This document shows, piece after piece, positions 1,817-59,240 of a DNA stretch of 64,000 nt; positions within the stretch are counted from its first letter, which is position 1, and every line of letters begins with the position of its first letter. Made by a program: the position numbers and the translations under genes. The DNA lies in contig CADECP010000005.1 in NCBI GenBank assembly GCA_902825875.1, positions 50,168 through 114,167 of the forward strand. The letters are read 5' to 3'. The DNA comes from an uncultured Acidobacteriota bacterium (GTDB lineage Bacteria; Acidobacteriota; Blastocatellia; RBC074). Under the pieces are notes generated by a model. The model searched no databases and was not told the origin of the DNA. It worked only from the letters and a program-made list of their open reading frames with translations.

Positions 1817-3249
1817 TGGTAAATAAACGTCACCGTCGCGTTGCAATCCGCGTTTGCCGTCACACGTACCCAGTGGGCACTGAATCCGGCGGGAAATTCG
1901 TGGTGCTTGTATTCATTGTTGCCCAAGTGAACAACCTCGTAGCTTTCCCAGCTTCCATCGCCGAGAAAGTCCACTTCGATATTGAAGGCCACCGATTTCG
2001 GCGAGGCGTTTTTCAGATGCACGACTTTGCGATCAAAGCCCGTCATCAAAAACGGATCGGAGGGAACATTCGCTTTCACATCTTGTTTGTGCCACACGCT
2101 GCCCCAACCGGCAGGTTTGCCCATCTTCCACAGATCGTCTACTTGACCGAACCATAGGCCGGTTTGCGGCTGCCCCCACGAGTTGTCGGTTTGATCTCCG
2201 CCCAACACGAAGAGTCCGCGCCAATAACAAAAGTCAGGCACGATCCTCAAGTGATTGCTGATCGGGCGAATCGGCAGAATGCGTCCGTCATAAATTTGCG
2301 CGGGCAGTTCGTAAAAGATGCCGTGCAAATCCATCAGGAAGCGTTCCGTTTGCGCGTCGCGGATTCGCATCCATTCGGTGTTCCAGGCGTGATCGAAGGT
2401 TTGCGCGCCTTTCGGCAGACGGTAGGTCAGCCATTTGCCTTTGGCGAAAACTTTCAGAATCGCCGACGCCTGGTCCCAGCCTGTAGCAAAAATCGGATTG
2501 CCGTAAGTTTCCGCCGACCAGTGTTTGCCCGCGACTTCGACAAAAGGTTTGCGCTCCAGAATTGTCCAGGTTTTGCCGTTCCATTCGGCCAAACGACCGG
2601 AGGCGTCTTTGCCGAGATAGTCCGCTTCGTAATAAGAATTGTTGGCGACGACTACGCGTCCGTTGGCTGAAAACGCGGCTTTGAAATGGACGCGGCCTTT
2701 GATGTCGAGTTCTTTGACCAGATTGAAAAGCTGTTTGGCTTCGAGCGTCTTTACGTCCACTTCATAAAACTCGCCTTCCATCGCCAGCATATAGACTTTG
2801 TTTTTCGGATCGGTCAGGTGAGTCATCGTCGAAGTCAGCCGCACATTCTTGATCGCTTCGATGGTGCGCACGTTGCCTTTGACATCAATGGCGTGCGGGC
2901 CGAGAAACGCCTGATTTGACGGATTGTGAATGTAACGATTGGTGAACGTGCCGACGACCGAAGCCGGATGTTTGTGCATCTGCATCTTTTCGTCCAGCCA
3001 GAACAGCCCCGTGCCTTCGCCGCGAATGTGGGCGACATAAGCGACGAACCATAATTTGTCAGCCCAGGGCAACAACGCGCCGATGCCTGCTTCGCTGCGG
3101 TTTTCGTGTCCAGCGACGACGGCAAGACCGGGGAACGCGCCGCCAATTTGAATGGGTGGCGTTTCAATTTTCTTTTCCGGTTCTTGCGCGCGCGCCACAG
3201 TCACCAGCACGAACAGACAAAACATGAAATTTATGAGCCAATGTTTCAT
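1813..3249 (-). CDS. Secreted hypothetical protein (N-terminal signal peptide); possible polysaccharide-active enzyme in this sugar-acid locus
   Basis: 478-aa ORF with cleavable signal (MKHWLINFMFCLFVLVTVARAQEP). Stop overlaps the MFS start. No family recognised from sequence. Confidence 0.6.
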   Translation of the reverse strand: MKHWLINFMFCLFVLVTVARAQEPEKKIETPPIQIGGAFPGLAVVAGHENRSEAGIGALLPWADKLWFVAYVAHIRGEGTGLFWLDEKMQMHKHPASVVGTFTNRYIHNPSNQAFLGPHAIDVKGNVRTIEAIKNVRLTSTMTHLTDPKNKVYMLAMEGEFYEVDVKTLEAKQLFNLVKELDIKGRVHFKAAFSANGRVVVANNSYYEADYLGKDASGRLAEWNGKTWTILERKPFVEVAGKHWSAETYGNPIFATGWDQASAILKVFAKGKWLTYRLPKGAQTFDHAWNTEWMRIRDAQTERFLMDLHGIFYELPAQIYDGRILPIRPISNHLRIVPDFCYWRGLFVLGGDQTDNSWGQPQTGLWFGQVDDLWKMGKPAGWGSVWHKQDVKANVPSDPFLMTGFDRKVVHLKNASPKSVAFNIEVDFLGDGSWESYEVVHLGNNEYKHHEFPAGFSAHWVRVTANADCNATVTFIYQ

Positions 3250-3264
3250 AACAAGTCGTAAGCG

Positions 3265-4335
3265 TTATCCTGCTTTGAGTGGAATCTGCACGTTGAAGGA
3301 ATACTCGCGCGCTGCCGAAACATCCGCTGCGCACAGCAACACCGCCGGTTTGTCTTTTTCAAACCAAAGCTGCGGTCGCTCCAATGAATTCATTTTTTGC
3401 TTCGTGCCATTGGCCCATTTCACTTCCATCGTTGCCACCAACGGATGCCGTGACAATTTCCAGTCCAAGCCATCCGCCGATTCAAACAACGCGAGCGATT
3501 TGCCTGCGTTGGTGAAATAGCCTTCGTTGTCTTTGACGATGGCGCGATAGCGTTGACCGTCGTGCCAGATGAACGGGTCTTCAGCGGCAAAAGCTACGCC
3601 CTCTTTCACAAAGACCGGATTGGGATGTTTTTTGAAAGTGCCGGTCGGGCTGTCGCTGGTTGCCACGCAATGCAGCACGGGGCCGCCGAACGGCATTTTG
3701 TTTTTATCGCCGACCGCTTTGTAAACCATCAGGAACCCGCCGTCAGGTCGTTTGGTGACGCTCGGATTGGAACACATCAGCGCGTCATAAAATCCTGCCG
3801 TAGGTTCGATCAACGGTTTATCAAATCGCTGCCACGGCCCCAGCGGATGATCGGCGACGGCCACGCCGATGCGTTGATTGTTGCGATGCGTCCAGTTGAG
3901 CGACTTCATCGCCAGGCCATCGCCCGTGTTGCCCATGTAATACAGATAATACTTTTTCCCGAACCGCTGCACCGTTGGATTGTGCGTGCAAAGCCCGTCC
4001 CAGAGCTGCTTGCCACGCGCGGGCAACGCGACCGACTTGAAGGTGAACGGCCCCAGCGGACTCTTGCCAACCGCCACCGCAACTTCGGAATGCGTCACCC
4101 AGGCGTTGTGTCCCAACGCGCGCGGCCAGCGCGAAAACAGCAGGTAGTATTTGCCGTCGTCGCCTTTGGTCAGCGTGCCGCACCAGACGTAATAATCCGG
4201 CAACTCAAATTTCGCCGTCAGTGGCACAGGCTGAATCAACTTTTGAAAATTCAGGTTATCGGCATTATGTTGTGGCAATGCCAGCGCACTCGCCAAAATC
4301 TGTCCGATAAATTGTCGGCGCGTTGGATGGTTCAT
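3265..4335 (-). CDS. Tat-exported glycoside hydrolase, five-bladed beta-propeller type (GH43-like)
   Basis: Twin-arginine motif TRRQFIG followed by a hydrophobic stretch. Propeller-type motifs (YYLYYMG, ADHPLGPW, EDPFIWHDGQRY). 4-nt overlap with the upstream gene. Confidence 0.6.
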   Translation of the reverse strand: MNHPTRRQFIGQILASALALPQHNADNLNFQKLIQPVPLTAKFELPDYYVWCGTLTKGDDGKYYLLFSRWPRALGHNAWVTHSEVAVAVGKSPLGPFTFKSVALPARGKQLWDGLCTHNPTVQRFGKKYYLYYMGNTGDGLAMKSLNWTHRNNQRIGVAVADHPLGPWQRFDKPLIEPTAGFYDALMCSNPSVTKRPDGGFLMVYKAVGDKNKMPFGGPVLHCVATSDSPTGTFKKHPNPVFVKEGVAFAAEDPFIWHDGQRYRAIVKDNEGYFTNAGKSLALFESADGLDWKLSRHPLVATMEVKWANGTKQKMNSLERPQLWFEKDKPAVLLCAADVSAAREYSFNVQIPLKAG

Positions 4336-5639
4336 ACGATGACTTTCGCCAACTCCTTTTCATTAAACTCAACGCCGAGTCCCGGACGTTCGGGCACGCG
4401 CGCGCTGCCGGGTTTGAACTCCAGCGGCTCTTTCAGCAACACGTTGCCAAACGGCCCTTCGCTTTTGTTGCCGCCTTCGATGATGACGAAATTCGCTGTG
4501 GCTACTGCCAGATGCAGCGAAGCCGCCACATAAGGAGCAGTCCCCGTGCTGACATGCGGCGACCACAAAACGCCGTGCGCGTCGGCAAGCGTCGCAATGC
4601 GTTTGCATTCGGTGATGCCGCCCGCGCGGCAAACATCAGGGTTGATGATGTCGCAGGCTTTCGCGGCGAACAGGTCGCGGAACTGAAAACGATTCGACAA
4701 GCCTTCGCCCACGCAGACGGGCGTACTCAGCGCCGCCGCCAAACGCGGATAACCAGATGTGTCTTCGGGCATCAGCGCGTCTTCCCACCAACCGATGCCG
4801 GGCATTTGATCGAGTTCGCGTCCGAGTTGTTCGGCTTCGTGCAACTTGAACGCGCCGAGCGAATCCAGCAGCAATTGCCCGCGGCCTTTGACGGCTTGCG
4901 TGACGGCGGCCAGGCGATCCAGCCCGCGCGAATTTGCGCCTTTGCCGAGTTCGGTTTTCATCGCGGTGTAACCCGCTTCGACCGCGCGCACGGCTTTGTC
5001 TTTCAACTCTTCGGCAGACGCGCTGCTGATGCCGAGGTAGGTCGGAACCGTGTCGCGGTACTTGCCACCGAGCAGCACATACAACGGCTGTCCGGTGAAT
5101 TTGCCCAGGATGTCCCACAGCGCCAGATCAATGCCGGCGATGGCTTCGGTGAACGGCGCAGTGGCGTAACCGCGCAATCGTTCGCTGGAATACATCCGTT
5201 CCCACAGCACTTCGACGTTGCGCGCGTCTTGTCCAATCAACAGCGGCGCGAGCATGTCGCTGATGATCGTTTGATGAACGCGCGGCGCGGCAGGCGCGTG
5301 GCATTCGCCCCAACCGATCAAGCCTTGATCGGTTGTGACCTTGACGATCACCGCTTGCGTGTAGCCGTTGAAACGTGACGGACTCGCGTGATCCAACCGA
5401 TTCCACAAACCTACGCCGCCCGTGCGATTGCCGACCGGAGGCATGACGATCAACTCTTCGGGCGTTTTGTTGTCTTTGGGAGTGCGAATGACGAAGGGTT
5501 CGATCTTCGTGATTTTGAGCGGAGAGGTTCCGACGCGAGCGCGCTGCACGACGGACATTTGAGCGAAATTTGTCGTGGCGGCGACGACCAACGCGCCGCC
5601 GCTTTTGAGCCATTCACGTCGTTTCATGCGAAAAGGCAT
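4332..5639 (-). CDS. Enolase-superfamily enzyme (MR/MLE family) carrying an N-terminal Tat signal peptide
   Basis: KRREWLKSGGALVVAATTNFAQM = RRxFLK-like Tat motif plus h-region. Body has MR/MLE pattern (IGWGECHAP..., DLALWDILGK, metal-ligand region). Start could also be Met5 (5627). Confidence 0.75.
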   Translation of the reverse strand: MPFRMKRREWLKSGGALVVAATTNFAQMSVVQRARVGTSPLKITKIEPFVIRTPKDNKTPEELIVMPPVGNRTGGVGLWNRLDHASPSRFNGYTQAVIVKVTTDQGLIGWGECHAPAAPRVHQTIISDMLAPLLIGQDARNVEVLWERMYSSERLRGYATAPFTEAIAGIDLALWDILGKFTGQPLYVLLGGKYRDTVPTYLGISSASAEELKDKAVRAVEAGYTAMKTELGKGANSRGLDRLAAVTQAVKGRGQLLLDSLGAFKLHEAEQLGRELDQMPGIGWWEDALMPEDTSGYPRLAAALSTPVCVGEGLSNRFQFRDLFAAKACDIINPDVCRAGGITECKRIATLADAHGVLWSPHVSTGTAPYVAASLHLAVATANFVIIEGGNKSEGPFGNVLLKEPLEFKPGSARVPERPGLGVEFNEKELAKVIV

Positions 5640-5641
5640 AT

Positions 5642-5700
5642 AGTCCCAGCTTCAGCCGTAATGCTTCGATAATAAAGGCATTCCGGCTGAAGCTGGGACT
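5642..5700 (-). terminator. Perfect 17-bp inverted repeat hairpin between the TonB-receptor gene stop and the Tat-enolase start (terminator/attenuator-like)
   Basis: agtcccagcttcagccg ... cggctgaagctgggact. Loop itself contains aatgc/gcatt. Lies 6 nt after the receptor stop codon. Confidence 0.4.
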
Positions 5701-5706
5701 ACGAAC

Positions 5707-15577: not shown

Positions 15578-18133
15578 ATGAGAAGAAGGTGTTCGGAGTT
15601 TTCTTTGCTCAGTTCGTGGGATTTTTTTTTGCTTCGTGGCGCGATTGCTTCGCTGATAATTTGCCTGATTTCTGTTGCTGCGTTCGGCCAACAATCGCAA
15701 GTTCGCACACGGTTGCGAATCACAACTGTTGATGAAGCCGGTCAGCCTGTCGCAGGTGTCGCTGTTCAAATCAAACTGAAAAACGATGTTCTTTCTTCGA
15801 TCTTCACTGACGAAAAAGGCGAAGTCGTTGCCGCCAACTTTCCTCCGGGAACTTACGAAATCACAGTTTCAAAAGAGGGTTTTCAGCCACGCACTCAAAA
15901 CAAACTTGACCTCAACACAGGCCTGGAAGTTGCCATCAACTTCGTCATGGTTGCGCTGATTTCCATCAAAGACGAAGCCAACATTACGGCCAGCACTTCG
16001 GACAGTCCGCCGGAACAGACGACTTCGACTTCGATGGAACTGTCGCGCGTTACGCTGCGCGAACTGCCAATGCCGACCAATTCGGTCAAAGACGCTTTGC
16101 CGCTGCTGCCCGGCGTCGTTCGTTCGCAACAGGGCGAAATCAAAATCTCCGGCACGGGCGAAAATCGCAGCGCCTTTATAGTCAATTCCGCCGACGTGAC
16201 CGACCCGGCTACGGGACAGTTCGGAATGACTGTGCCGGTGGACAGCGTTCAATCCATCAACGTTTTCAAAACACCTTATCTGGCGCAGTACGGACGCTTC
16301 ACCGCCGGAGTCGTTTCGGTCGAAACTCGTCGCGGCGGCGACAAATGGCGGTTTGAGCTGAACGACCCTTTCCCGGAATTTCGCTTCTTGAATGGCCACT
16401 TGAGGGGTTTACGCGACGCCACTCCGCGCATTGTGTTCAACGGGCCGTTGGTCAAAAACCGGCTTTTCATTTCGCAAGGCACGGAATACACCATCAGCAA
16501 ACGCGCCGTGCAGACGCTGGAATATCCGAACAAAGAAATGATCAGCGAATCAGTCAATTCCTTTACGCAGCTTGATTACATCGCGTCGGGCACGCACACC
16601 CTGACAGGGACCTTTCATCTGGCTCCGCGCAAAGACAAATTTCACGGCCTGGATTTTTTCAACCGCCGAGAAGTCACTCCGAATTTCAGCGGCAAGGATT
16701 ACACAGGAACTCTGATTGACCGGCTGACGCTGGGAAGGAGTTTGCTGGAAAGCCTGGTGTCTGTGAAAAACTACAGCGCAAACGTCTGGGGGCAAGGCGT
16801 TCGGGAAATGACGCTGACCCCGACAGGCAATCGCGGGAATTATTTCAGCGAACAGGATCGTCAGGCGACGCGCGTGGAATGGACAGAAACCTTGTCGCTG
16901 CAACCGATCCGCAGTTCATCCATTGGCGGCACGCACAACCTGAAATTCGGCAGCGTCATTGCTCGCACCACCAATCGCGGCGAATTTGTCGCGCGTCCGG
17001 TGAACATCGTTGACAACGATAACAACCTGCTTCGCCGCATTGAATTTGTTGGCGGCACACCATTCGATTTGACCGATTTGGAAACGCACGGCTTCGCGCA
17101 GGATCACTGGAACATCACGCCGAAAATGGCGATGGACATAGGGTTGCGCGTCGAACGGCAACGCATTGCTGAAACGTTGCGCCTTGCTCCGCGAGTCGGC
17201 ATCGCCTGGACTCCGTTCGACAATCGCAAAACCGTGTTGCGCGCCGGAGCCGGATATTTTTACGACCGAGTGCCGCTGGGCGTTTACGCTTTCGACAAAT
17301 ATCCCGAACAGGTGTTGTCGTTTTACGGCGCGAACGGCGCAATCGTTGACGGCCCTCGCCGATTGGCCAACATCACCGACCGCGCCAAAAGCCGCAACAA
17401 CCCGTTCATCGTGGGCGACGGCGATGTCGGCAACTTTTCACCGTACAGCGCAACGTGGAATGTCGAACTGGAACACAGCTTCACGCGATTGCTGAAACTG
17501 CGCGTCAATTATCTGACCAGCAACTCAGACGGCGTGGTGGTTGTCGAACCAAAAGTTTTTCAGGGAAAAGACGCTCTGGTTTTGGGCGGCGGAGGCCAAT
17601 CGCGGTATCGCCAGTTTGAAATCACAGGCAAGTTGAATTGGAGCGAAGGCAAACAGAATCTGTTTTTGTCTTATGTTCACAGCAGCATTCGCGGCAACAT
17701 CAACGAATTCAACACCTACATCGGCAACTTCCCGTTTCCTGTGGTGCGACCGGATCAACTCGCCCGGCTGAGCGCGGATCTGCCACATCGCTTTTTGGGC
17801 TGGGGAACTTTCAACCTGCCGTGGAAAGTGCGGTACTCACCAATTGTCGAATTCCGCAACGGCTTTCCGTATTCGAAACTGAGCGCCAACCAGCAATTCA
17901 TCGGTGAAGCCAACAGTTTGCGAATGCCTAAGTTCTTTTCTCTGGACAGCCGCATTTCGCGCGACTTTCAGGTCAATCCGAAATACGCTTTTCGGTTTTC
18001 GCTGAGCGGATTCAACCTGACGAATCGCAACAATCCGCTGGACGTGCATCGCAATGTCGCCGATCCGCAATTCGGCAGGTTCTTCGGCAACTTCCCCAGA
18101 TTTTTCCGTCTGGATTTCGACGTCATCTTCTAG
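15578..18133 (+). CDS. TonB-dependent-receptor-like outer-membrane protein (CarbopepD_reg-like N-domain, plug, barrel; C-terminal F)
   Basis: 851 aa, 'TTVDEAGQPVAGVAVQIKL', plug-like region, ends ...LDFDVIF. AAAGAGG RBS upstream. T9 tract at 15622-15630 inside the N-terminal coding region. Confidence 0.7.
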   Translation: MRRRCSEFSLLSSWDFFLLRGAIASLIICLISVAAFGQQSQVRTRLRITTVDEAGQPVAGVAVQIKLKNDVLSSIFTDEKGEVVAANFPPGTYEITVSKEGFQPRTQNKLDLNTGLEVAINFVMVALISIKDEANITASTSDSPPEQTTSTSMELSRVTLRELPMPTNSVKDALPLLPGVVRSQQGEIKISGTGENRSAFIVNSADVTDPATGQFGMTVPVDSVQSINVFKTPYLAQYGRFTAGVVSVETRRGGDKWRFELNDPFPEFRFLNGHLRGLRDATPRIVFNGPLVKNRLFISQGTEYTISKRAVQTLEYPNKEMISESVNSFTQLDYIASGTHTLTGTFHLAPRKDKFHGLDFFNRREVTPNFSGKDYTGTLIDRLTLGRSLLESLVSVKNYSANVWGQGVREMTLTPTGNRGNYFSEQDRQATRVEWTETLSLQPIRSSSIGGTHNLKFGSVIARTTNRGEFVARPVNIVDNDNNLLRRIEFVGGTPFDLTDLETHGFAQDHWNITPKMAMDIGLRVERQRIAETLRLAPRVGIAWTPFDNRKTVLRAGAGYFYDRVPLGVYAFDKYPEQVLSFYGANGAIVDGPRRLANITDRAKSRNNPFIVGDGDVGNFSPYSATWNVELEHSFTRLLKLRVNYLTSNSDGVVVVEPKVFQGKDALVLGGGGQSRYRQFEITGKLNWSEGKQNLFLSYVHSSIRGNINEFNTYIGNFPFPVVRPDQLARLSADLPHRFLGWGTFNLPWKVRYSPIVEFRNGFPYSKLSANQQFIGEANSLRMPKFFSLDSRISRDFQVNPKYAFRFSLSGFNLTNRNNPLDVHRNVADPQFGRFFGNFPRFFRLDFDVIF

Positions 18134-18146
18134 CCAAAACTTTTTC

Positions 18147-18223
18147 ATCCACGAAGAAACACGAAGATGACACGAAGAAAACCAAAGTTTTTTCTTCGTG
18201 AAACTTCGTGTTCCTTCGTGGAT
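18147..18223. repeat. CACGAAG-decamer palindromic repeat forming nested hairpins between convergent genes (bidirectional terminator-like)
   Basis: atccacgaagaaacacgaagatgacacgaagaaaaccaaagttttttcttcgtgaaacttcgtgttccttcgtggat. Same family as 55018-55186. Confidence 0.6.
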
Positions 18224-18239
18224 AGAGATTTATGCTTTC

Positions 18240-18794
18240 CTACCTTCGCCGTCTGCTTCTTCCTTTCCCGCCCCCGCCAATGGATTTGACTGCCGACCAA
18301 GCAAGGTCAGCCGCCGTGTGAGACAACGCTCCCAGACACAATCCCAGAAATCCAGCCCACAAGTAGTTTTTGTCAGCTTGGTCGTAAAAAGAAAACATGT
18401 CGCTTTTGACCAGATTGAATTCCGCCGTCCAGGTGGTTTGCATTCCTCGCAAATAAGCGTGTCGCAAATACAACAACGTCGCCGCCACCACCGCGAACAT
18501 CAGCGCGAAATACATAATCCGCAACACAGTTCCCAAAACCGGCCCATGTGATAACGCCGAACGATGCGGCAAAGCGACTTGATACGGCTTCCAGATAAAT
18601 CGCAGCGGCCCCCAACGTTTGTACGGCCGGCTCATCAAATCCAGGTCAGGCCCGAACATCAACCCGGCGAACAACATCGCGGCTGTGGCGATGACGGACA
18701 TCAGGTGATCGCCGCCCCAATACATTTCCGCGCCCAGATACGTGAACGGAACCAACACATAAGTGATGATGTCGTGGGTGTCAGCATTTGGCAT
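18240..18794 (-). CDS. Membrane-bound metal-dependent hydrolase-like protein (DUF2227/YdjM-like)
   Basis: N-terminal MPNADTHDII, 4-5 TM helices, basic C-tail. Family assignment from memory, tentative. Confidence 0.5.
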   Translation of the reverse strand: MPNADTHDIITYVLVPFTYLGAEMYWGGDHLMSVIATAAMLFAGLMFGPDLDLMSRPYKRWGPLRFIWKPYQVALPHRSALSHGPVLGTVLRIMYFALMFAVVAATLLYLRHAYLRGMQTTWTAEFNLVKSDMFSFYDQADKNYLWAGFLGLCLGALSHTAADLAWSAVKSIGGGGKGRSRRRR

Positions 18795-30550: not shown

Positions 30551-30572
30551 CTTTTCTATTCCGGTCTATTCC

Positions 30573-30656
30573 GGATGTTGGGTTTTGGATTTTGAAAAAC
30601 TGGCGCTTTGAGTGCGATTCAAAATCTAAAATCCAACATCCACAATTCGTTTTTTC
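30573..30656 (+). terminator. Rho-independent terminator: 24-nt imperfect inverted repeat followed by T-run
   Basis: ggatgttgggttttggattttgaa ... ttcaaaatctaaaatccaacatcc, then cgttttttct. Confidence 0.55.
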
Positions 30657-31556: not shown

Positions 31557-31620
31557 AAAGACGGAGAGACTGAGGGATGGGGTGTTTTCTCTCCGTCTCT
31601 CATTCTCCCTGTCTCTCAAA
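31557..31620. repeat. GA/TC-rich hairpin (gacggagaga...tctctccgtc) between convergent genes; terminator-like; related to 1121-1198
   Basis: Seen directly. Shares 'gactgaggga' and 'tctccgtctc' with the element inside the MFS gene. Confidence 0.5.
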
Positions 31621-32296
31621 TCCCGCCATCGTCCCGCCTCAATTGATTGACCAGCAAATGCGCCTGTCGAGTCGGTTCCGGTTGGCGATATTTCGTCACT
31701 GACCTCATTGCCAGATCAACCGCCGTATTCAAATCCATCAAGTGCCCGGCGGAGATGTACACCGGCGCAACTTTCTTTTTCGTCCTGAGCGCAACGCCGA
31801 CAATTTCCTGTTTGTCTATCAATGGCGAACTGCTTCCGGCATCCAAATCAAGCTTGCCGTGCCGCCCAACCAGAATGCTTTTCGCACAACCAAGCGTTGG
31901 CAAATCCAGAATCAATCCGATGTGACAGGCGATGCCAAACCGTCGCGGATGAGCCAGCCCTTGTCCGTCCAGCATCAAGGCATCCGGCTTGGTCGTCAGC
32001 TTTTCCCAGCATTCCAAAAACGAAGGCGTTTCGCGGAAACTCAACAAGCCCGGCACGTACGGAAACTTTGCCGTGCTGCGAACGCTGGAGGTTTCGACAA
32101 TCTGCAAATCAGGCAGGCTGAGCACAACAATGCCGGAGTAGATCACGTCCGAAAATCGGTTGAAGGAAATGTCTGCTCCGGCAATGGTGTGGATTTCGTG
32201 GTTGGGCGGTTCGATGCGAACCAGCGAGCGCCATTCTTTCTGGGCTTCGATGGCTTCTTTAGGCGTCAGATTCCAATTAGTAAGCGAATAAGGCAT
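31616..32296 (-). CDS. nfi: Endonuclease V (deoxyinosine 3' endonuclease)
   Basis: AGADISF, YVPGLLSFRE, DGQGLAHPRRFGIACHIGLILDLPTLGCAKS match Nfi catalytic motifs. Confidence 0.85.
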   Translation of the reverse strand: MPYSLTNWNLTPKEAIEAQKEWRSLVRIEPPNHEIHTIAGADISFNRFSDVIYSGIVVLSLPDLQIVETSSVRSTAKFPYVPGLLSFRETPSFLECWEKLTTKPDALMLDGQGLAHPRRFGIACHIGLILDLPTLGCAKSILVGRHGKLDLDAGSSSPLIDKQEIVGVALRTKKKVAPVYISAGHLMDLNTAVDLAMRSVTKYRQPEPTRQAHLLVNQLRRDDGGI

Positions 32297-32318
32297 AGAC
32301 AGGATTTACAAGATTCAC
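32295..32318. repeat. Left arm of inverted repeat 'tagacaggatttacaagatt' flanking the GxxExxY gene
   Basis: 21-nt perfect match to the reverse complement of 32734-32757. Also present at 55059-55078. Confidence 0.7.
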
Positions 32319-32323
32319 AGGAT

Positions 32324-32713
32324 TCAAGAAGAAATTGTGCCAGATGTCTTGTAGATGCGATATTTGCGCCTGACTTGAACCGACGAACCGAAGTTGAGCA
32401 ACAACCCAGAATTATTTCCGGTCGCAACTAAATAGTTGACCAACTGAACCTCGTGATCTTTGCTCAACGACTGAACCGCTTTCAATTCAACAATGATTTG
32501 GTTTTCAACCCACAAGTCAGCGAAATACTCACCTATCGCCCGTCCGTCATAAAAAACAGTTATGGGAACTTCAACCATAGCTGACAGCCCAACCTTTTCA
32601 AGCTCAATACACAAGGCTTTTTTGTAAATCTTTTCGAGAAAACCAGATCCAAGGGTGTTATGAACTTTGTAAGCACAGCCAATGATGATTTCAGTCAATT
32701 CGTCATCGCTCAT
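32324..32713 (-). CDS. GxxExxY-family protein (PD-(D/E)XK-like small protein)
   Basis: 129 aa. GFLEKIY = GxxExxY motif. Family size and pattern as recalled for TIGR04256-like proteins. Gene lies exactly inside a hairpin-repeat loop. Confidence 0.75.
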   Translation of the reverse strand: MSDDELTEIIIGCAYKVHNTLGSGFLEKIYKKALCIELEKVGLSAMVEVPITVFYDGRAIGEYFADLWVENQIIVELKAVQSLSKDHEVQLVNYLVATGNNSGLLLNFGSSVQVRRKYRIYKTSGTISS

Positions 32714-32733
32714 AGACTACACACCATCCTGTT

Positions 32734-32757
32734 AATCTTGTAAATCCTGTCTATTAT
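32734..32757. repeat. Right arm of inverted repeat (aatcttgtaaatcctgtcta) flanking the GxxExxY gene
   Basis: Reverse complement of the left arm. Starts 21 nt past the GxxExxY start codon (32713). Confidence 0.7.
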
Positions 32758-32767
32758 CTGTGTTGCT

Positions 32768-33199
32768 TTAACCAGCGATTTCTACCAACTTCAAATCGAA
32801 ATGCAGTTCTTCGCCCGCCAATGGATGATTGGCATCCAGCGTGACGGTGGTTTCGGTCAGTTCGGTGATGACCAGCGGGATGGCTCCCTGCGGAGTTTGC
32901 ATTTCAATCGCCATGCCGAGTTCCGGTTCGACATCGCCGATGTTGAATTGTTCGCGGCTGATGGTTTGCATCAGTTCTTCCATTCGCTGGCCGTAGGCTT
33001 GATCGGCGGGAATGACGACATTCTTGGTTTCGCCGATTTGCATTCCAACCAACGCGGCGTCAAAACCCGGTATAACGTGACCGGCTCCGACCGTGAATCC
33101 CAACGGGTCGCCGCCTTCCGAAGAATCGAAAACCTGGCCGTCATCGAACTTACCTGTGTAATGCACCTTCACGGCGTCGCCGTTTTTCACTATAGACAT
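32768..33199 (-). CDS. slyD: FKBP-type peptidyl-prolyl cis-trans isomerase SlyD-like (FKBP with IF insertion domain)
   Basis: VKVHYTGKFDDGQVFDSS..GDPLGFTVGAGHVIPGFDAALVGMQIGE FKBP core plus insert-in-flap domain. 143 aa. Confidence 0.85.
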   Translation of the reverse strand: MSIVKNGDAVKVHYTGKFDDGQVFDSSEGGDPLGFTVGAGHVIPGFDAALVGMQIGETKNVVIPADQAYGQRMEELMQTISREQFNIGDVEPELGMAIEMQTPQGAIPLVITELTETTVTLDANHPLAGEELHFDLKLVEIAG

Positions 33200-53800: not shown

Positions 53801-54988
53801 TTAGTTACAAGCTTCGAACAAGCCAGCCATGCCTTGTCCGCCGCCGATGCACATCGTCACCACGCCATATTTCGCTTTGCGGCGAAGCAATTCGTTGCCG
53901 ATGGTTCCGACCAAACGCGAACCGGTCATGCCGAACGGATGCCCAATCGAAATCGAACCGCCGTTGACATTCAGTTTGTCAGGGTCAATGCCCAGAAAAT
54001 CGCGGCAGTAAACGACCTGCACGGCGAAGGCTTCGTTCAATTCCCACACGTCAATGTCGTTGACCGTCAGACCGTGACGCTTCAGCAGTTTCGGAATCGC
54101 GTAAATCGGGCCGATGCCCATTTCGTCCGGCTCACAACCGGAGACGGCGAATCCGCGAAAGATCATTTTCGGTTTGATGCCCAAGGCTTCCGCGCGTTCA
54201 CGCGACATCAGCAAATTGATTGCCGCTCCGTCGGACAATTGCGAAGAATTCCCAGCGGTGACGCTTCCCTGCCCGCTGTCTTTGTCGAAGTGCGGTTTCA
54301 ACGCCAGCAAACCTTCGAGCGTGGTGTCCGGGCGATTGCATTCGTCTTTGTCGCAAAGTCGTTCTTCTTGGCTGACCACCTGTCCGGTTTGTTTATCCAG
54401 AATGCCTGCCATCACTTTCATCGGAGCGATTTCGCCCTGGAAAAATCCTTCGGCCTGAGCGCGTGCTGTGCGTTGCTGGCTGCTGAGCGAGTATTCGTCC
54501 TGCGCCTGTCGGCTGACGCCATAGCGTTTGGCAACGATTTCCGCCGTGTCGCCCATGACCATGTAAATTCCCGGCTTCATTTCCTTGACCACAGGATGCG
54601 GATTGCTGTCGCGGCCCAGCATCGTGATGCTTTCGACTCCGCCGCCGATGGCAGCGTCCGCGCCTTCGACCATAATCTGGTGAGCCGCCATCGCCACCGA
54701 TTGCAAACCGGAGGAACAAAACCGATTGACCGTCGTCGCAGCCACCGACACCGGCAAGCCCGACAACACCGAAGCCACGCGAGCGACGTTTGTGCCTTGC
54801 GCTCCGCACGGATAACCCGCGCCGATGATGACGTCTTCGATTTCAGCCGGATCAAGTTGCGGAGTTTTGGCCAACACATCCTTGATGCAATGCGCCAGCA
54901 TGTCCGCAGGCAACGTCAGGTTGAACGATCCGCGAAACGATTTGGCCAGCGCCGTGCGCGAACTGGCGACAACAACTGCTTCTTTCAT
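53801..54988 (-). CDS. Acetyl-CoA C-acetyltransferase (thiolase II)
   Basis: Thiolase motifs VNRFCSSGLQSV (active Cys), NGGSISIGHPFGMTGSRL, CIGGGQGMA. Confidence 0.9.
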   Translation of the reverse strand: MKEAVVVASSRTALAKSFRGSFNLTLPADMLAHCIKDVLAKTPQLDPAEIEDVIIGAGYPCGAQGTNVARVASVLSGLPVSVAATTVNRFCSSGLQSVAMAAHQIMVEGADAAIGGGVESITMLGRDSNPHPVVKEMKPGIYMVMGDTAEIVAKRYGVSRQAQDEYSLSSQQRTARAQAEGFFQGEIAPMKVMAGILDKQTGQVVSQEERLCDKDECNRPDTTLEGLLALKPHFDKDSGQGSVTAGNSSQLSDGAAINLLMSRERAEALGIKPKMIFRGFAVSGCEPDEMGIGPIYAIPKLLKRHGLTVNDIDVWELNEAFAVQVVYCRDFLGIDPDKLNVNGGSISIGHPFGMTGSRLVGTIGNELLRRKAKYGVVTMCIGGGQGMAGLFEACN

Positions 54989-55017: not shown

Positions 55018-55186
55018 TCCACGAAGTCACACGAAGCAGCACGAAGAAGAAAAGACCTTAGACAGGATTTACAAGATTGGACAGGATTGACTGGCAGTCT
55101 GTTGAATCAGGCTTTCATCCTGTTGCATCCTGTAAATCCTGTCTAAAAATTTCTTCTCTTCGTGTCCTCTTCGTGTGTCTTCGTGG
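55018..55186. repeat. Composite nested palindrome: outer CACGAAG-decamer arms enclosing an 'empty' copy of the tagacaggatttacaagatt hairpin
   Basis: Outer arms ccacgaagtcacacgaagcagcacgaagaag... / ...cttctcttcgtgtcctcttcgtgtgtcttcgtgg. Inner arms tagacaggatttacaagatt / atcctgtaaatcctgtcta. Confidence 0.6.
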
Positions 55187-55194
55187 AAGATAAG

Positions 55195-55809
55195 TTATTT
55201 CAACAGACCGCCCAGTGCGATCTTGCAAAGTTCTTCGGCGACTTGCTCGCGCGACAGTTCGCCGTCAGGCCGGAACCAGCGCGCCAACCACATAATCATT
55301 CCCAACAAACTGAACGCCGCCGCCGTCACATCAACAGCTTTCAGCTTGCCTTCGGCGTTCATTTCTTCCAGCGTCGAGCGAATCAAATCCACGTACAGAC
55401 GTTTTCGCTGACGCAGCTTGCGGCGATGCGCGGGCGACAATCCCAATTCTTCTTCGACCAGAATCGTCACCGGACTGTGACCTTCGTCCGTGCTGCTCCG
55501 AGCGATCAACATCGCGTGATTGGTGATGATGAACCGCAAACGTTGTTCGGCGTCAGCGACTTCCTTTGCCGGTTTGATGACCGCAGCCTCCAGCGTATCC
55601 ATGCCGTAGCTCATAATCGCAAAGAGCAATTCTTTTTTGCTGGGAATGAAATGATAGACACCGGCTTTGGTGATGCCGACGGCTTCGGCAATGTCGCTCA
55701 TTGAAGTGGCGTCGAAACCACGCTCGCAAATCATCTGCGCGGCGACGGAGTAAATCTGATCCGTGCGTTCTGAACCGCTCAATCGAATTTGTTTCTTGCC
55801 GTTTTTCAT
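55195..55809 (-). CDS. TetR/AcrR-family transcriptional regulator
   Basis: HTH region IYSVAAQMICERGFDATSMSDIAEAVGITKAGVYHFIPSKKELL. Confidence 0.85.
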   Translation of the reverse strand: MKNGKKQIRLSGSERTDQIYSVAAQMICERGFDATSMSDIAEAVGITKAGVYHFIPSKKELLFAIMSYGMDTLEAAVIKPAKEVADAEQRLRFIITNHAMLIARSSTDEGHSPVTILVEEELGLSPAHRRKLRQRKRLYVDLIRSTLEEMNAEGKLKAVDVTAAAFSLLGMIMWLARWFRPDGELSREQVAEELCKIALGGLLK

Positions 55810-55854
55810 AACTGACCGACCGGTAGGCAAGTTATCACGCAGCCCGACAGAGCG

Positions 55855-56871: not shown

Positions 56872-56940
56872 GCGCGTTTGTAGTTCCGCCTTTAGGCGGC
56901 TGAAGTTACGCAGCCGCCTAAAGGCGGAACTACAAACGCG
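56872..56940. repeat. Perfect about 30-bp-stem palindrome (gcgtttgtagttccgcctttaggcggctg / loop aagttacg / reverse complement); each arm also self-palindromic
   Basis: Seen directly. Lies 2 nt after the crotonase stop and 22 nt before the MBL start. No T-run. Confidence 0.55.
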
Positions 56941-59151: not shown

Positions 59152-59240
59152 ACCCGGTACAGAACCGGGAGCGGTAGCGACTGGGTGATTTCGTGAAGCA
59201 CTCACCTAGTCGCTACTGCTCCCGGTTCCATACCAGTAAC
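59152..59240. repeat. REP-like palindromic element (gaaccgggagcggtagcgactgggtga / tcacctagtcgctactgctcccggttc) between hisS and aspS
   Basis: 27-nt arms with 2 mismatches, loop tttcgtgaagcac. Core also found inside the ADH gene (33961-33985). Confidence 0.6.

Follow-up and report, generated by a model that had tools for sequence, protein, structure and literature searches.

CACGAAG iteron hairpins in an Acidobacteriota genome and their association with GxxExxY nuclease genes

A 64,000-nucleotide stretch of DNA from an uncultured Acidobacteriota bacterium (Blastocatellia; contig CADECP010000005.1; hereafter, the window) carries two long hairpins whose arms are each built from three copies of the heptamer CACGAAG. 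Relatives of these hairpins occur in many phyla, and arrays of the same design flank nuclease genes of the GxxExxY family (TIGR04256/PF13366, PDDEXK_3), one of which lies in the window at positions 32324-32713. We lean toward the interpretation that both CACGAAG hairpins are gene-less derivatives, similar to miniature inverted-repeat transposable elements (MITEs), of small selfish cassettes bearing a GxxExxY nuclease gene. The link between the iteron hairpins and this nuclease family is specific, apparently undescribed, and represented by a copy in the window.

CACGAAG hairpins in the window and in other genomes

The simpler element (18147-18223) consists of ATC-CACGAAG-aaa-CACGAAG-atga-CACGAAG, a 16-nt loop, and CTTCGTG-aaa-CTTCGTG-ttc-CTTCGTG-GAT. 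It resides between the convergent stops of a gene for a TonB-type outer-membrane protein (15578-18133, plus strand, ending 13 nt before the hairpin) and a DUF2227 gene (18240-18794, minus strand, with its stop 16 nt away). This arrangement of three tandem units and their reverse complement had been described in an earlier reading of the DNA that used no database searches (the sequence-only reading), and it is confirmed by the sequence and by a folding z-score of -9.6 relative to shuffles (RNA fold).

The second element (55018-55187) is a composite. Its outer arms hold three CACGAAG and three CTTCGTG units, the innermost of which are 111 nt apart, and enclose a second palindrome with arms GACAGGATTTACAAGATTGGACAGGATT and ATCCTGTTGCATCCTGTAAATCCTGTC, made of GACAGGAT/ACAAGAT units. 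Its neighbors are a TetR gene (55195-55830, minus strand), whose stop is on one side, and a thiolase gene (53801-54988, minus strand), whose start is on the other. The previously noted placement of CACGAAG arms around another hairpin family thus holds, with outer arms at 55018-55046 and 55158-55187 and a folding z-score of -11.5 (DNA fold).

The period of the units in both elements is 10-11 nt. Their heptamers are exact, and the spacers between units are just partly complementary between arms. The window contains 25 occurrences of CACGAAG, compared with 12.1 +/- 3.8 in shuffled sequences (0 of 100 shuffles reach 25); 12 of the 25 fall in these two elements, whose four arms are the only CACGAAG arrays in the window when one mismatch per unit is allowed. 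Three other sites had been read as echoes that suggest a shared ancestry or a shared recognition motif; the claim fails, as each reflects chance or another family. Positions 15611-15640 are the signal-peptide coding part of the outer-membrane protein gene, 59189-59201 match the motif once, and only in part, within the loop of another palindrome, and 49843-50108 belong to a different element (49841-50119) that has terminal repeats of 18 nt.

A scan of one genome per species with the pattern CACGAAG-N3-4-CACGAAG-N3-4-CACGAAG bore out the expectation of a wider repeat family. It produced at least 120 loci, whereas by our own estimate about one match to 21 fixed bases is expected by chance in 596 Gb. 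A few matches are plain tandem repeats (L017, L063, L031 and others), and most have the layout seen in the window. Among 66 non-redundant elements, CACGAAG units are followed by CTTCGTG units within 250 nt, with the reverse order in one locus only (L016). The distance to the inverted second half-array varies from 11 to 190 nt, and the insert between the arms is usually itself palindromic. The loci, from many phyla, share the arm TTyATC-CACGAAG-nCA-CACGAAG-rrr-CACGAAG. In 159 aligned arms, TTyATC precedes the outer unit, with C at -1 in 126 arms and T at -2 in 97; nCA forms the first spacer in 59, and the second spacer is purine-rich. Because the arm is position-specific across loci, common descent is indicated rather than repeated chance invention.

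According to record titles, the hosts include Blastocatellia and other Acidobacteriota, Caldilineaceae, Chloroflexia, Anaerolineae, Dehalococcoidia, Planctomycetota, Bacteroidales, Calditrichota, Ignavibacteria, Syntrophobacter, Auribacterota, Kiritimatiellota and others. Contigs in viral collections contain 19 more CACGAAG loci, among them a dense 4+4 sub-family in which as many as five copies occur in 14 kb. Homologues of the TetR protein are named Blastocatellia or Acidobacteriota, and identical proteins are found in wastewater and other metagenome assemblies. Several metagenome-assembled genomes (MAGs) labeled "uncultured Heliomicrobium/Heliobacteriaceae" (L007, L051, L060, L070, L074 and others) have flanks and element copies in common with Blastocatellia MAGs. 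L060, for example, shares them with L056 and L066. The Heliomicrobium label of these MAGs is probably wrong.

Further variation was observed within the family. In degenerate units across L007-L126, position 4 (the G of CpG) changes most, to give CACAAAG, CACCAAG or CACTAAG with the partners CTTTGTG, CTTGGTG and CTTAGTG. L044 6318-6394 and L057 1559-1635, from MAGs that carry the labels Aminicenantes and Auribacterota, have an identical 34-nt arm including spacers (CTTCGTGtttCTTCGTGtaaCTTCGTGgctaaat), which suggests recent transfer or a binning error. Caldilineaceae and Versatilivoraceae carry long one-directional tandem arrays with units of ~48 nt or longer and no inverted partner (L058 2407-3468, L059 3623-4622, L109 3391-3545, L045 3829-4100); these units hold triplets of the ATC-CACGAAG-ggg-CACGAAG type. 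In Dehalococcoidia, a multi-copy gene encoding 131 aa (MRTLSEIRKEIRALQRKYHRQL...) that lacks a Pfam match is found at L026 ~4100-4870, L075 ~2560-3200 (minus strand) and L097 ~3650-4124. Directly upstream of its ribosome-binding site are three AAAATGGCAC units followed by a solo CTTCGTGx3-GAT arm.

The elements lie 0-30 nt from gene ends, in gaps between 22 co-directional, 7 convergent and 1 divergent gene pairs (crude open reading frame calls). Copies in L061 are inside the cluster ilvD-[x]-ilvBN-[x]-ilvC, and those in L070 are inside a rhamnose cluster. The L061 core between the arms is ~110 nt and non-palindromic, and the two copies carry it in opposite orientations, like the core of a MITE.

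Orthologous sites differ in whether they carry an element. At the site between the DUF2227 and outer-membrane protein genes, the element is present in the window and in L128 (91% protein identity), and L127 (91%), L129, L130 and L133 each have a different simple hairpin instead. The 18147 stem thus lies where relatives have an ordinary 3'-end hairpin and probably acts there as a transcript-end stem-loop. L128 additionally carries a ~190-nt degenerate GACAGGAT-type element, with TA on both sides, that is absent from the window.

At the TetR/thiolase site, the same composite is present in the window and in L136 (90%), L134 and L135 (91%) have an empty 31-nt spacer, the genes overlap in L138, and other palindrome families occupy L137 and L139. 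The composite is gained or lost whole at this gap, and the gap attracts several palindrome families. The combination of CACGAAG arms outside and GACAGGAT arms inside recurs in about ten independent loci (among them L009, L078, L080, L089, L093, L098, L102, L105 and L124). Because the composite recurs, and comes and goes as one unit at the TetR/thiolase site, the nesting is a propagated architecture and no local accident; the suggestion that it reflects insertion of one repeat into another was not upheld.

Two observations concern the same gap and the same nesting. In L137, a Blastocatellia relative, positions 2687-2874 of the TetR/thiolase gap hold GTAGGGGCAGACCTGCGTGTCTGCCCC-type repetitive extragenic palindromic (REP) doublets, which are also abundant in a Dehalococcoidia chromosome (L075 2300-2560). 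In Caldilineaceae and Chloroflexia (L081 338-451 and 1711-1814, L106, L113, L040), the CACGAAG element itself lies inside an outer palindrome, AGGCCAnnCC...AAATAATnATC / GATnAnTATTT...GGnnTGGCCT, which forms a third layer.

No target duplication was detected in the 66 CACGAAG elements relative to shuffled partners (offsets 0-21, lengths 2-5), with the one exception of the self-complementary AT of ATC/GAT. The arms are complementary for 3-6 nt beyond the outer unit, and the palindrome ends there. TTA/TTG at the TetR site and TA/TA in L128 are single cases, and the clean TA/TA case belongs to a GACAGGAT-type element.

The units are strongly conserved relative to spacers and loops. Alignments of orthologous copies (window with L128, window with L136, and L056/L060/L066) have variable columns at 3 of 126 heptamer positions and at 95 of 238 others (Fisher p = 2e-17). 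The two comparisons that were retrieved by protein homology, and are thus unbiased by the search pattern, give 2 of 84 versus 79 of 203. The feature that is kept is the sequence of both arms, beyond mere pairing.

GxxExxY nuclease genes between iteron arrays

Genes adjacent to the arrays were compared by all-against-all clustering of 719 open reading frames from 120 loci of up to 8 kb. The sole recurrent neighbor family is a pair of GxxExxY genes (L060 701-1084 and L014 1106-1477), whose products score 147-148 bits against TIGR04256 (cut-off 35) and also match PF13366. In L060, the gene starts 3 nt after a CACGAAGx3 array, and a CTTCGTGx3 array lies 70 nt beyond the gene. In L014, the gene sits between two complete CACGAAG hairpins. 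An association with transposases of the IS200/IS605 type (TnpA_REP), proposed for testing in the sequence-only reading, found no counterpart, as none is linked in the 120 loci. Genes between paired elements in L061, L070 and L044 were also considered as a possible linked transposase, and they are housekeeping or unrelated.

A profile built from the L014 and L060 proteins revealed further GxxExxY genes in L130 and in the window (32324-32713, minus strand). The window protein scores 140.2 bits against PF13366 (cut-off 22), and its gene, like those of L014 and L060, is a member of the family. The window cassette fills exactly the gap between an FKBP gene (32768-33199) and an endonuclease V gene (31616-32296), with all three genes on the minus strand, and its arms, GACAGGATTTACAAGATTCACAGGATTC and ATCCTGTTAATCTTGTAAATCCTGTC, have the unit type of the inner arms of the 55018 composite (Table 1). 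The L130 gene lies between CACAGAG-type arrays. An open reading frame in the loop of a terminal-inverted-repeat stem is found in the window (32298-32751), L060, L130, L147, L148 and L153. The proposal that the mobilizing machinery is encoded outside the window is doubtful: GxxExxY/PDDEXK_3 is the only gene family found inside such arrays, and one copy is present at 32324-32713.

Table 1. Positions of the two CACGAAG elements and of the GxxExxY cassette in the window
Feature	Position	Strand	Description
Simple element, left arm	18147..18177		ATC + 3 CACGAAG units, starting at 18150, 18160, 18171
Simple element, loop	18178..18193		aaaaccaaagtttttt, 16 nt; orthologous copy L128 differs by an indel and substitutions
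Simple element, right arm	18194..18223		3 CTTCGTG units, starting at 18194, 18204, 18214, + GAT
Cassette arm	32298..32325		GACAGGATTTACAAGATTCACAGGATTC; 2 nt from endonuclease V start codon; overlaps GxxExxY stop codon
GxxExxY / PDDEXK_3 nuclease gene	32324..32713	-	129 aa; co-directional with FKBP and endonuclease V genes
Cassette, other arm	32726..32751		ATCCTGTTAATCTTGTAAATCCTGTC; ends 12 nt upstream of GxxExxY ATG, 16 nt after FKBP stop
Composite, outer left arm	55018..55046		TC + 3 CACGAAG units
Composite, inner left arm	55061..55088		GACAGGATTTACAAGATTGGACAGGATT; 3 ACAGGAT-type units, period 10
Composite, central loop	55089..55116		Same position as the GxxExxY gene in gene-bearing relatives
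Composite, inner right arm	55117..55143		ATCCTGTTGCATCCTGTAAATCCTGTC
Composite, outer right arm	55158..55187		3 CTTCGTG units + GA

One protein clade is invariably paired with a single unit type: GACAGGAT arrays accompany every relative of the window protein at 67-89% identity. Two of these relatives (L148, L149) are at the same locus as the window cassette, and another (L153) is at a YceI/aldehyde dehydrogenase locus. The clade member in L152 (an Anaerolineae MAG) has a complete hairpin on each side of the gene, and that in L157, at a ThiC locus, has tandem copies of the arm together with the 5' end of the gene. In L157, positions 396-905 upstream of the GxxExxY gene comprise three to four tandem modules of ~120-140 nt, each with an ATCCTGT-type arm, a ribosome-binding site and the first ~10 codons, an arrangement that looks like repeated partial duplication or conversion.

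The association is also seen when the search begins with the genes, and so runs in both directions. Nine GxxExxY genes were picked from plasmid or secondary-chromosome records irrespective of repeats. Those of Bacteroides finegoldii, Bernardetia and Gemmatirosa have CACAGAG or CGCAGAG 3+3 arrays, and a second Gemmatirosa copy has a GCGGAT 3+3 hairpin. The Sphingomonas gene, in the order fabD-[gene]-fabG, has a CGCGAAG array directly upstream, and the Prevotella gene is flanked on each side by repeats of an ACAAATC unit, which are directly oriented. An 11-nt inverted repeat accompanies the Treponema gene and direct repeats accompany that of a Fusobacteria plasmid; the Persicobacter gene has nothing of the kind. 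In those records that are annotated, all of the genes are co-directional with their neighbors, across gaps of ~30-60 nt. Several unit types are thus represented in the arrays that enclose GxxExxY genes. In a number of cassettes, the purine-rich unit nearest the gene occupies the position expected of a ribosome-binding site (CACGAAGgggATG, ACACAGAGGAcggtATG).

The window gene encodes a protein with a PD-(D/E)xK fold and an intact D...ExK catalytic motif, and its structure model is a confident one, with a predicted local distance difference test score (pLDDT) of 89.9. Forty-six relatives keep D66, E76-x-K78, E27, Y30 and Q90xxxY94. A sequence search of the PDB gave no related solved structure, and viral contigs scanned with the GxxExxY alignment gave no relative. 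A single search returned 4,734 relatives at E<=1e-10. PDDEXK_3 was listed with function "Unknown" and with "multiple transfers" in a 2012 superfamily survey (PMC3424549). Within the library searched, our literature search returned nothing relevant to the family beyond that survey, and no paper tying GxxExxY/PDDEXK_3 to flanking repeat arrays; a literature search on the repeat motif words also returned nothing relevant.

A proposed nuclease cassette and competing explanations

In the cassette interpretation, a full cassette consists of a promoterless gene for a ~125-aa GxxExxY nuclease (PD-(D/E)xK, Cas4/RecB-like) and its arrays, with the gene in the loop between two inverted arrays or between two complete array hairpins. 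Each array comprises three purine-rich units of 7-8 nt, one helical turn apart. Cassettes and gene-less stems fill short intergenic gaps, mostly within co-directional clusters, and are gained or lost as a unit. The units would be recognized by their sequence, for binding or cleavage, and the enzyme that recognizes them would most probably be the cognate GxxExxY nuclease. This nuclease could act on the stem in its hairpin or cruciform form or, as in homing, on vacant copies, and could drive the spread or maintenance of the cassette. A solo stem would be what remains after gene loss, and the 55018 composite would be a GACAGGAT-type stem that has lost its gene, lies in the loop of a CACGAAG-type stem, and is now propagated with it as one unit.

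A broader proposal is more tentative, and we consider it rather doubtful as a whole. GxxExxY/PDDEXK_3 proteins might be the nucleases of an unrecognized class of mobile cassettes bounded by inverted arrays, each with three helically phased iterons. By recognizing the iterons of its own cassette, either extruded as a hairpin or cruciform or in vacant stems, each nuclease might cause the cassette to be copied without target duplication. The gene-less hairpins of Acidobacteriota, Chloroflexota, Planctomycetota, Bacteroidota and others might then be non-autonomous offspring. Such a system would resemble the partnership of REP sequences with REP-associated tyrosine transposases (RAYTs), with a Cas4/RecB-like nuclease in place of the Y1 transposase.

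If correct, the association would provide the first functional context for GxxExxY/PDDEXK_3, a large family listed as of unknown function, and would explain the iteron-built hairpins scattered through the intergenic regions and operons of many poorly studied phyla. It would also define a selfish-element design, in which an iteron stem holds a nuclease gene in its loop and no target duplication is made, that is unlike the REP-RAYT pair and the pairing of insertion sequences (IS) with MITEs. The arm consensus and cassette layout could be used for annotating such elements, which probably break up short-read assemblies.

Several findings weigh against a cassette origin of the hairpins. A gene is present in just 2 of ~100 CACGAAG loci, and the 19 viral-collection loci, despite reaching five copies per 14 kb, have no GxxExxY gene; stems may therefore spread without a nearby gene. 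The L014 and L060 proteins are 39% identical, and that of L014 is closer to CACAGAG-linked proteins, so that co-variation of protein and unit is clear for the GACAGGAT clade alone. Within the 64-kb window, no CACGAAG-type GxxExxY gene was found. Two of the nine plasmid-record genes lack arrays (L141, with direct repeats, and L142, with nothing), and L144 has just an 11-nt inverted repeat. The host names are MAG labels, some of them clearly wrong ("Heliomicrobium" loci share flanks with Blastocatellia loci). Finally, PD-(D/E)xK nucleases cut DNA but alone do not explain integration, and no target duplication was found that would point to an insertion chemistry.

The main rival explanation is one that we regard as unlikely. 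The hairpins could be an independent REP- or MITE-like family mobilized in trans by a transposase. This might be a DDE enzyme that binds several sub-terminal sites, or an enzyme of the Y1/RAYT type or of another type that leaves the target unduplicated. GxxExxY genes would then be separate passengers homing into hairpin loops, and the hairpins would be their targets rather than remnants. This explanation stays alive because gene-bearing copies are scarce and co-variation of protein and unit is weak outside the GACAGGAT clade. The terminal inverted repeats and core of L061, the presence/absence polymorphism at orthologous sites, and the lack of target duplication, as in IS200/IS605-type or REP elements, are all in keeping with it. 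So are the pairing of CACGAAG arrays with two quite different GxxExxY proteins and the tandem copies of arm and gene 5' end in L157, which resemble repeated partial conversion. However, no transposase or RAYT recurs beside the arrays in the 120 loci, and GTAG is absent from the arm consensus. Moreover, the units stay conserved while the rest drifts, which a spent non-autonomous copy would not need, and wherever the GACAGGAT protein clade occurs, across loci and phyla, its arrays occur with it.

A clearly lower probability attaches to a non-mobile RNA stem-loop selected by the host, which would stabilize transcripts between cistrons or at 3' ends, be processed (by RNase III, for example) or terminate transcription. 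The placement of the elements near gene ends, mostly between co-directional or convergent genes, the very stable folds, the retention of copies at orthologous sites across species, and the occurrence of some hairpin in every relative at the 18147 site would all fit such a role. Other evidence opposes it. Neither window element fits the pattern of an intrinsic terminator (a GC-rich stem and then a U-tract), and neither has a sigma-70 pattern. The family flanks (downstream consensus GATGAAAA) are T-rich upstream and A-rich downstream, the reverse of a terminator. Folding energy shows no bias toward the sense over the antisense strand (22 co-directional contexts, p = 0.14), and thus there is no G-U signature. 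Searches of Rfam 15 at the gathering score gave no match for the elements, with a tRNA as the sole match in the window, and a relaxed search gave just sub-threshold matches to generic miRNA hairpins on both strands. The sequence of both arms is conserved rather than pairing alone, spacers are often unpaired, and sites are empty in equally close relatives. The conservation of the units, together with the lack of an RNA signature, therefore argues for recognition of the units by a factor, and it argues against both a purely structural RNA role and inert debris.

It is very improbable that the arrays serve as operators, bound in the style of OmpR/PhoB or MraZ by a regulator or nucleoid protein whose direct-repeat sites are spaced by one helical turn: the three conserved 7-nt direct repeats with a period of 10-11 bp, and the position of some solo arms directly upstream of ribosome-binding sites (L026, L075, L097, L145), are as expected, but no neighboring gene or pathway is common to the loci, arrays are also found between convergent stops and inside operons, and the second half-array is always inverted, 11-190 nt away, around a usually palindromic insert, which fits a hairpin and not a duplex operator.

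Known systems and other palindromes in the window

In layout, the closest known system to the cassettes is the 23S rRNA intervening sequence (IVS). In Coxiella burnetii, this selfish element has a small open reading frame (S23p) in the loop of a ~28-bp terminal-inverted-repeat stem; it is transcribed within the host transcript, and its reading frame is prone to decay, leaving the stem behind (PMC4990558). In both systems, the loop of a terminal-repeat stem houses a small reading frame with no known function. However, the IVS resides in rRNA helices, is cut out by RNase III, and encodes a four-helix-bundle protein, whereas the cassettes described here occupy intergenic gaps of mRNA operons and have iteron-built stems and a nuclease reading frame.

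In genomic behavior, the closest systems are REP sequences, including their inverted pairs (REPINs), and MITEs. The sequence-only reading had compared the CACGAAG hairpins with MITEs and with REP sequences and the bacterial interspersed mosaic elements (BIMEs) that contain them. That comparison stands insofar as the hairpins are dispersed extragenic palindromes, present in many genomes and variably present at given sites. It does not extend to the features that define REP sequences (GTAG, RAYT) or to the target duplication of MITEs, which were not found. Where MITEs have a transposase-encoding parent, the gene-bearing forms here carry GxxExxY and no known transposase.

Like the REP, BIME and REPIN families, the CACGAAG elements are extragenic, many-copy imperfect palindromes at gene ends or between cistrons. 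Inverted pairs form long hairpins without target duplication, and families pile up at the same intergenic spots. However, CACGAAG arms (TTyATC-CACGAAG-nCA-CACGAAG) have no 5' GTAG, the unit is not self-complementary, and each arm consists of three direct iterons one helical turn apart. In addition, no RAYT gene flanked by CACGAAG arrays occurs in the 120 loci. REP families are typically lineage-specific, whereas the same CACGAAG arm is found across phyla.

The resemblance to MITEs includes terminal inverted repeats around a short non-coding core, occurrence in both orientations, presence or absence at orthologous sites, and insertion into operons with the genes left intact. Unlike MITEs, CACGAAG elements have a target-site duplication at no offset, and no parent with a known transposase was seen; where relatives bear a gene, it encodes a 125-aa PD-(D/E)xK nuclease.

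The ends of Mu, Tn7 and IS21 carry several short protein-binding repeats, direct at each end and inverted between ends, an order that the iterons studied here share. Mu end sites have half-sites resembling CACGAAA or GCGAAAG about 10-12 bp apart. In contrast to these transposons, the CACGAAG elements are 65-200 nt long, have no such transposase nearby, and lack a TG...CA terminus and target duplication. Resemblances of the outer unit to a DnaA box (TTATCCACg), and of the arm to parS or to Mu ends, were discounted: a DnaA box matches the outermost unit alone, and the context lends no support.

The window contains at least five distinct palindrome families. The 279-nt element at 49841-50119, which is unrelated to the CACGAAG family, has perfect 18-nt terminal inverted repeats (TCACGAGTTTGGACAAAA) and is flanked on either side by CTA, an arrangement that resembles a MITE with a target duplication of 3 bp. 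A perfect 30-nt palindrome with an 8-nt loop (CGCGTTTGTAGTTCCGCCTTTAGGCGGCTG, 56873-56940) contains GTAG and so resembles a classical REP doublet. Intergenic palindromes are also present at 5641-5701 and 30568-30646, one with the sequence TAGTCCCAGCTTCAGCCG... and one made of GGATGTTGGGTTTTGGATTTTG-type short units. Finally, the palindrome GGTACAGAACCGGGAGCGGTAGCGACTGGGTGA at 59156-59234 has a relative, CAGTACCGCGAGCGGTAGCGAGCG, that fills the TetR/thiolase gap in L139 (2702-2824).
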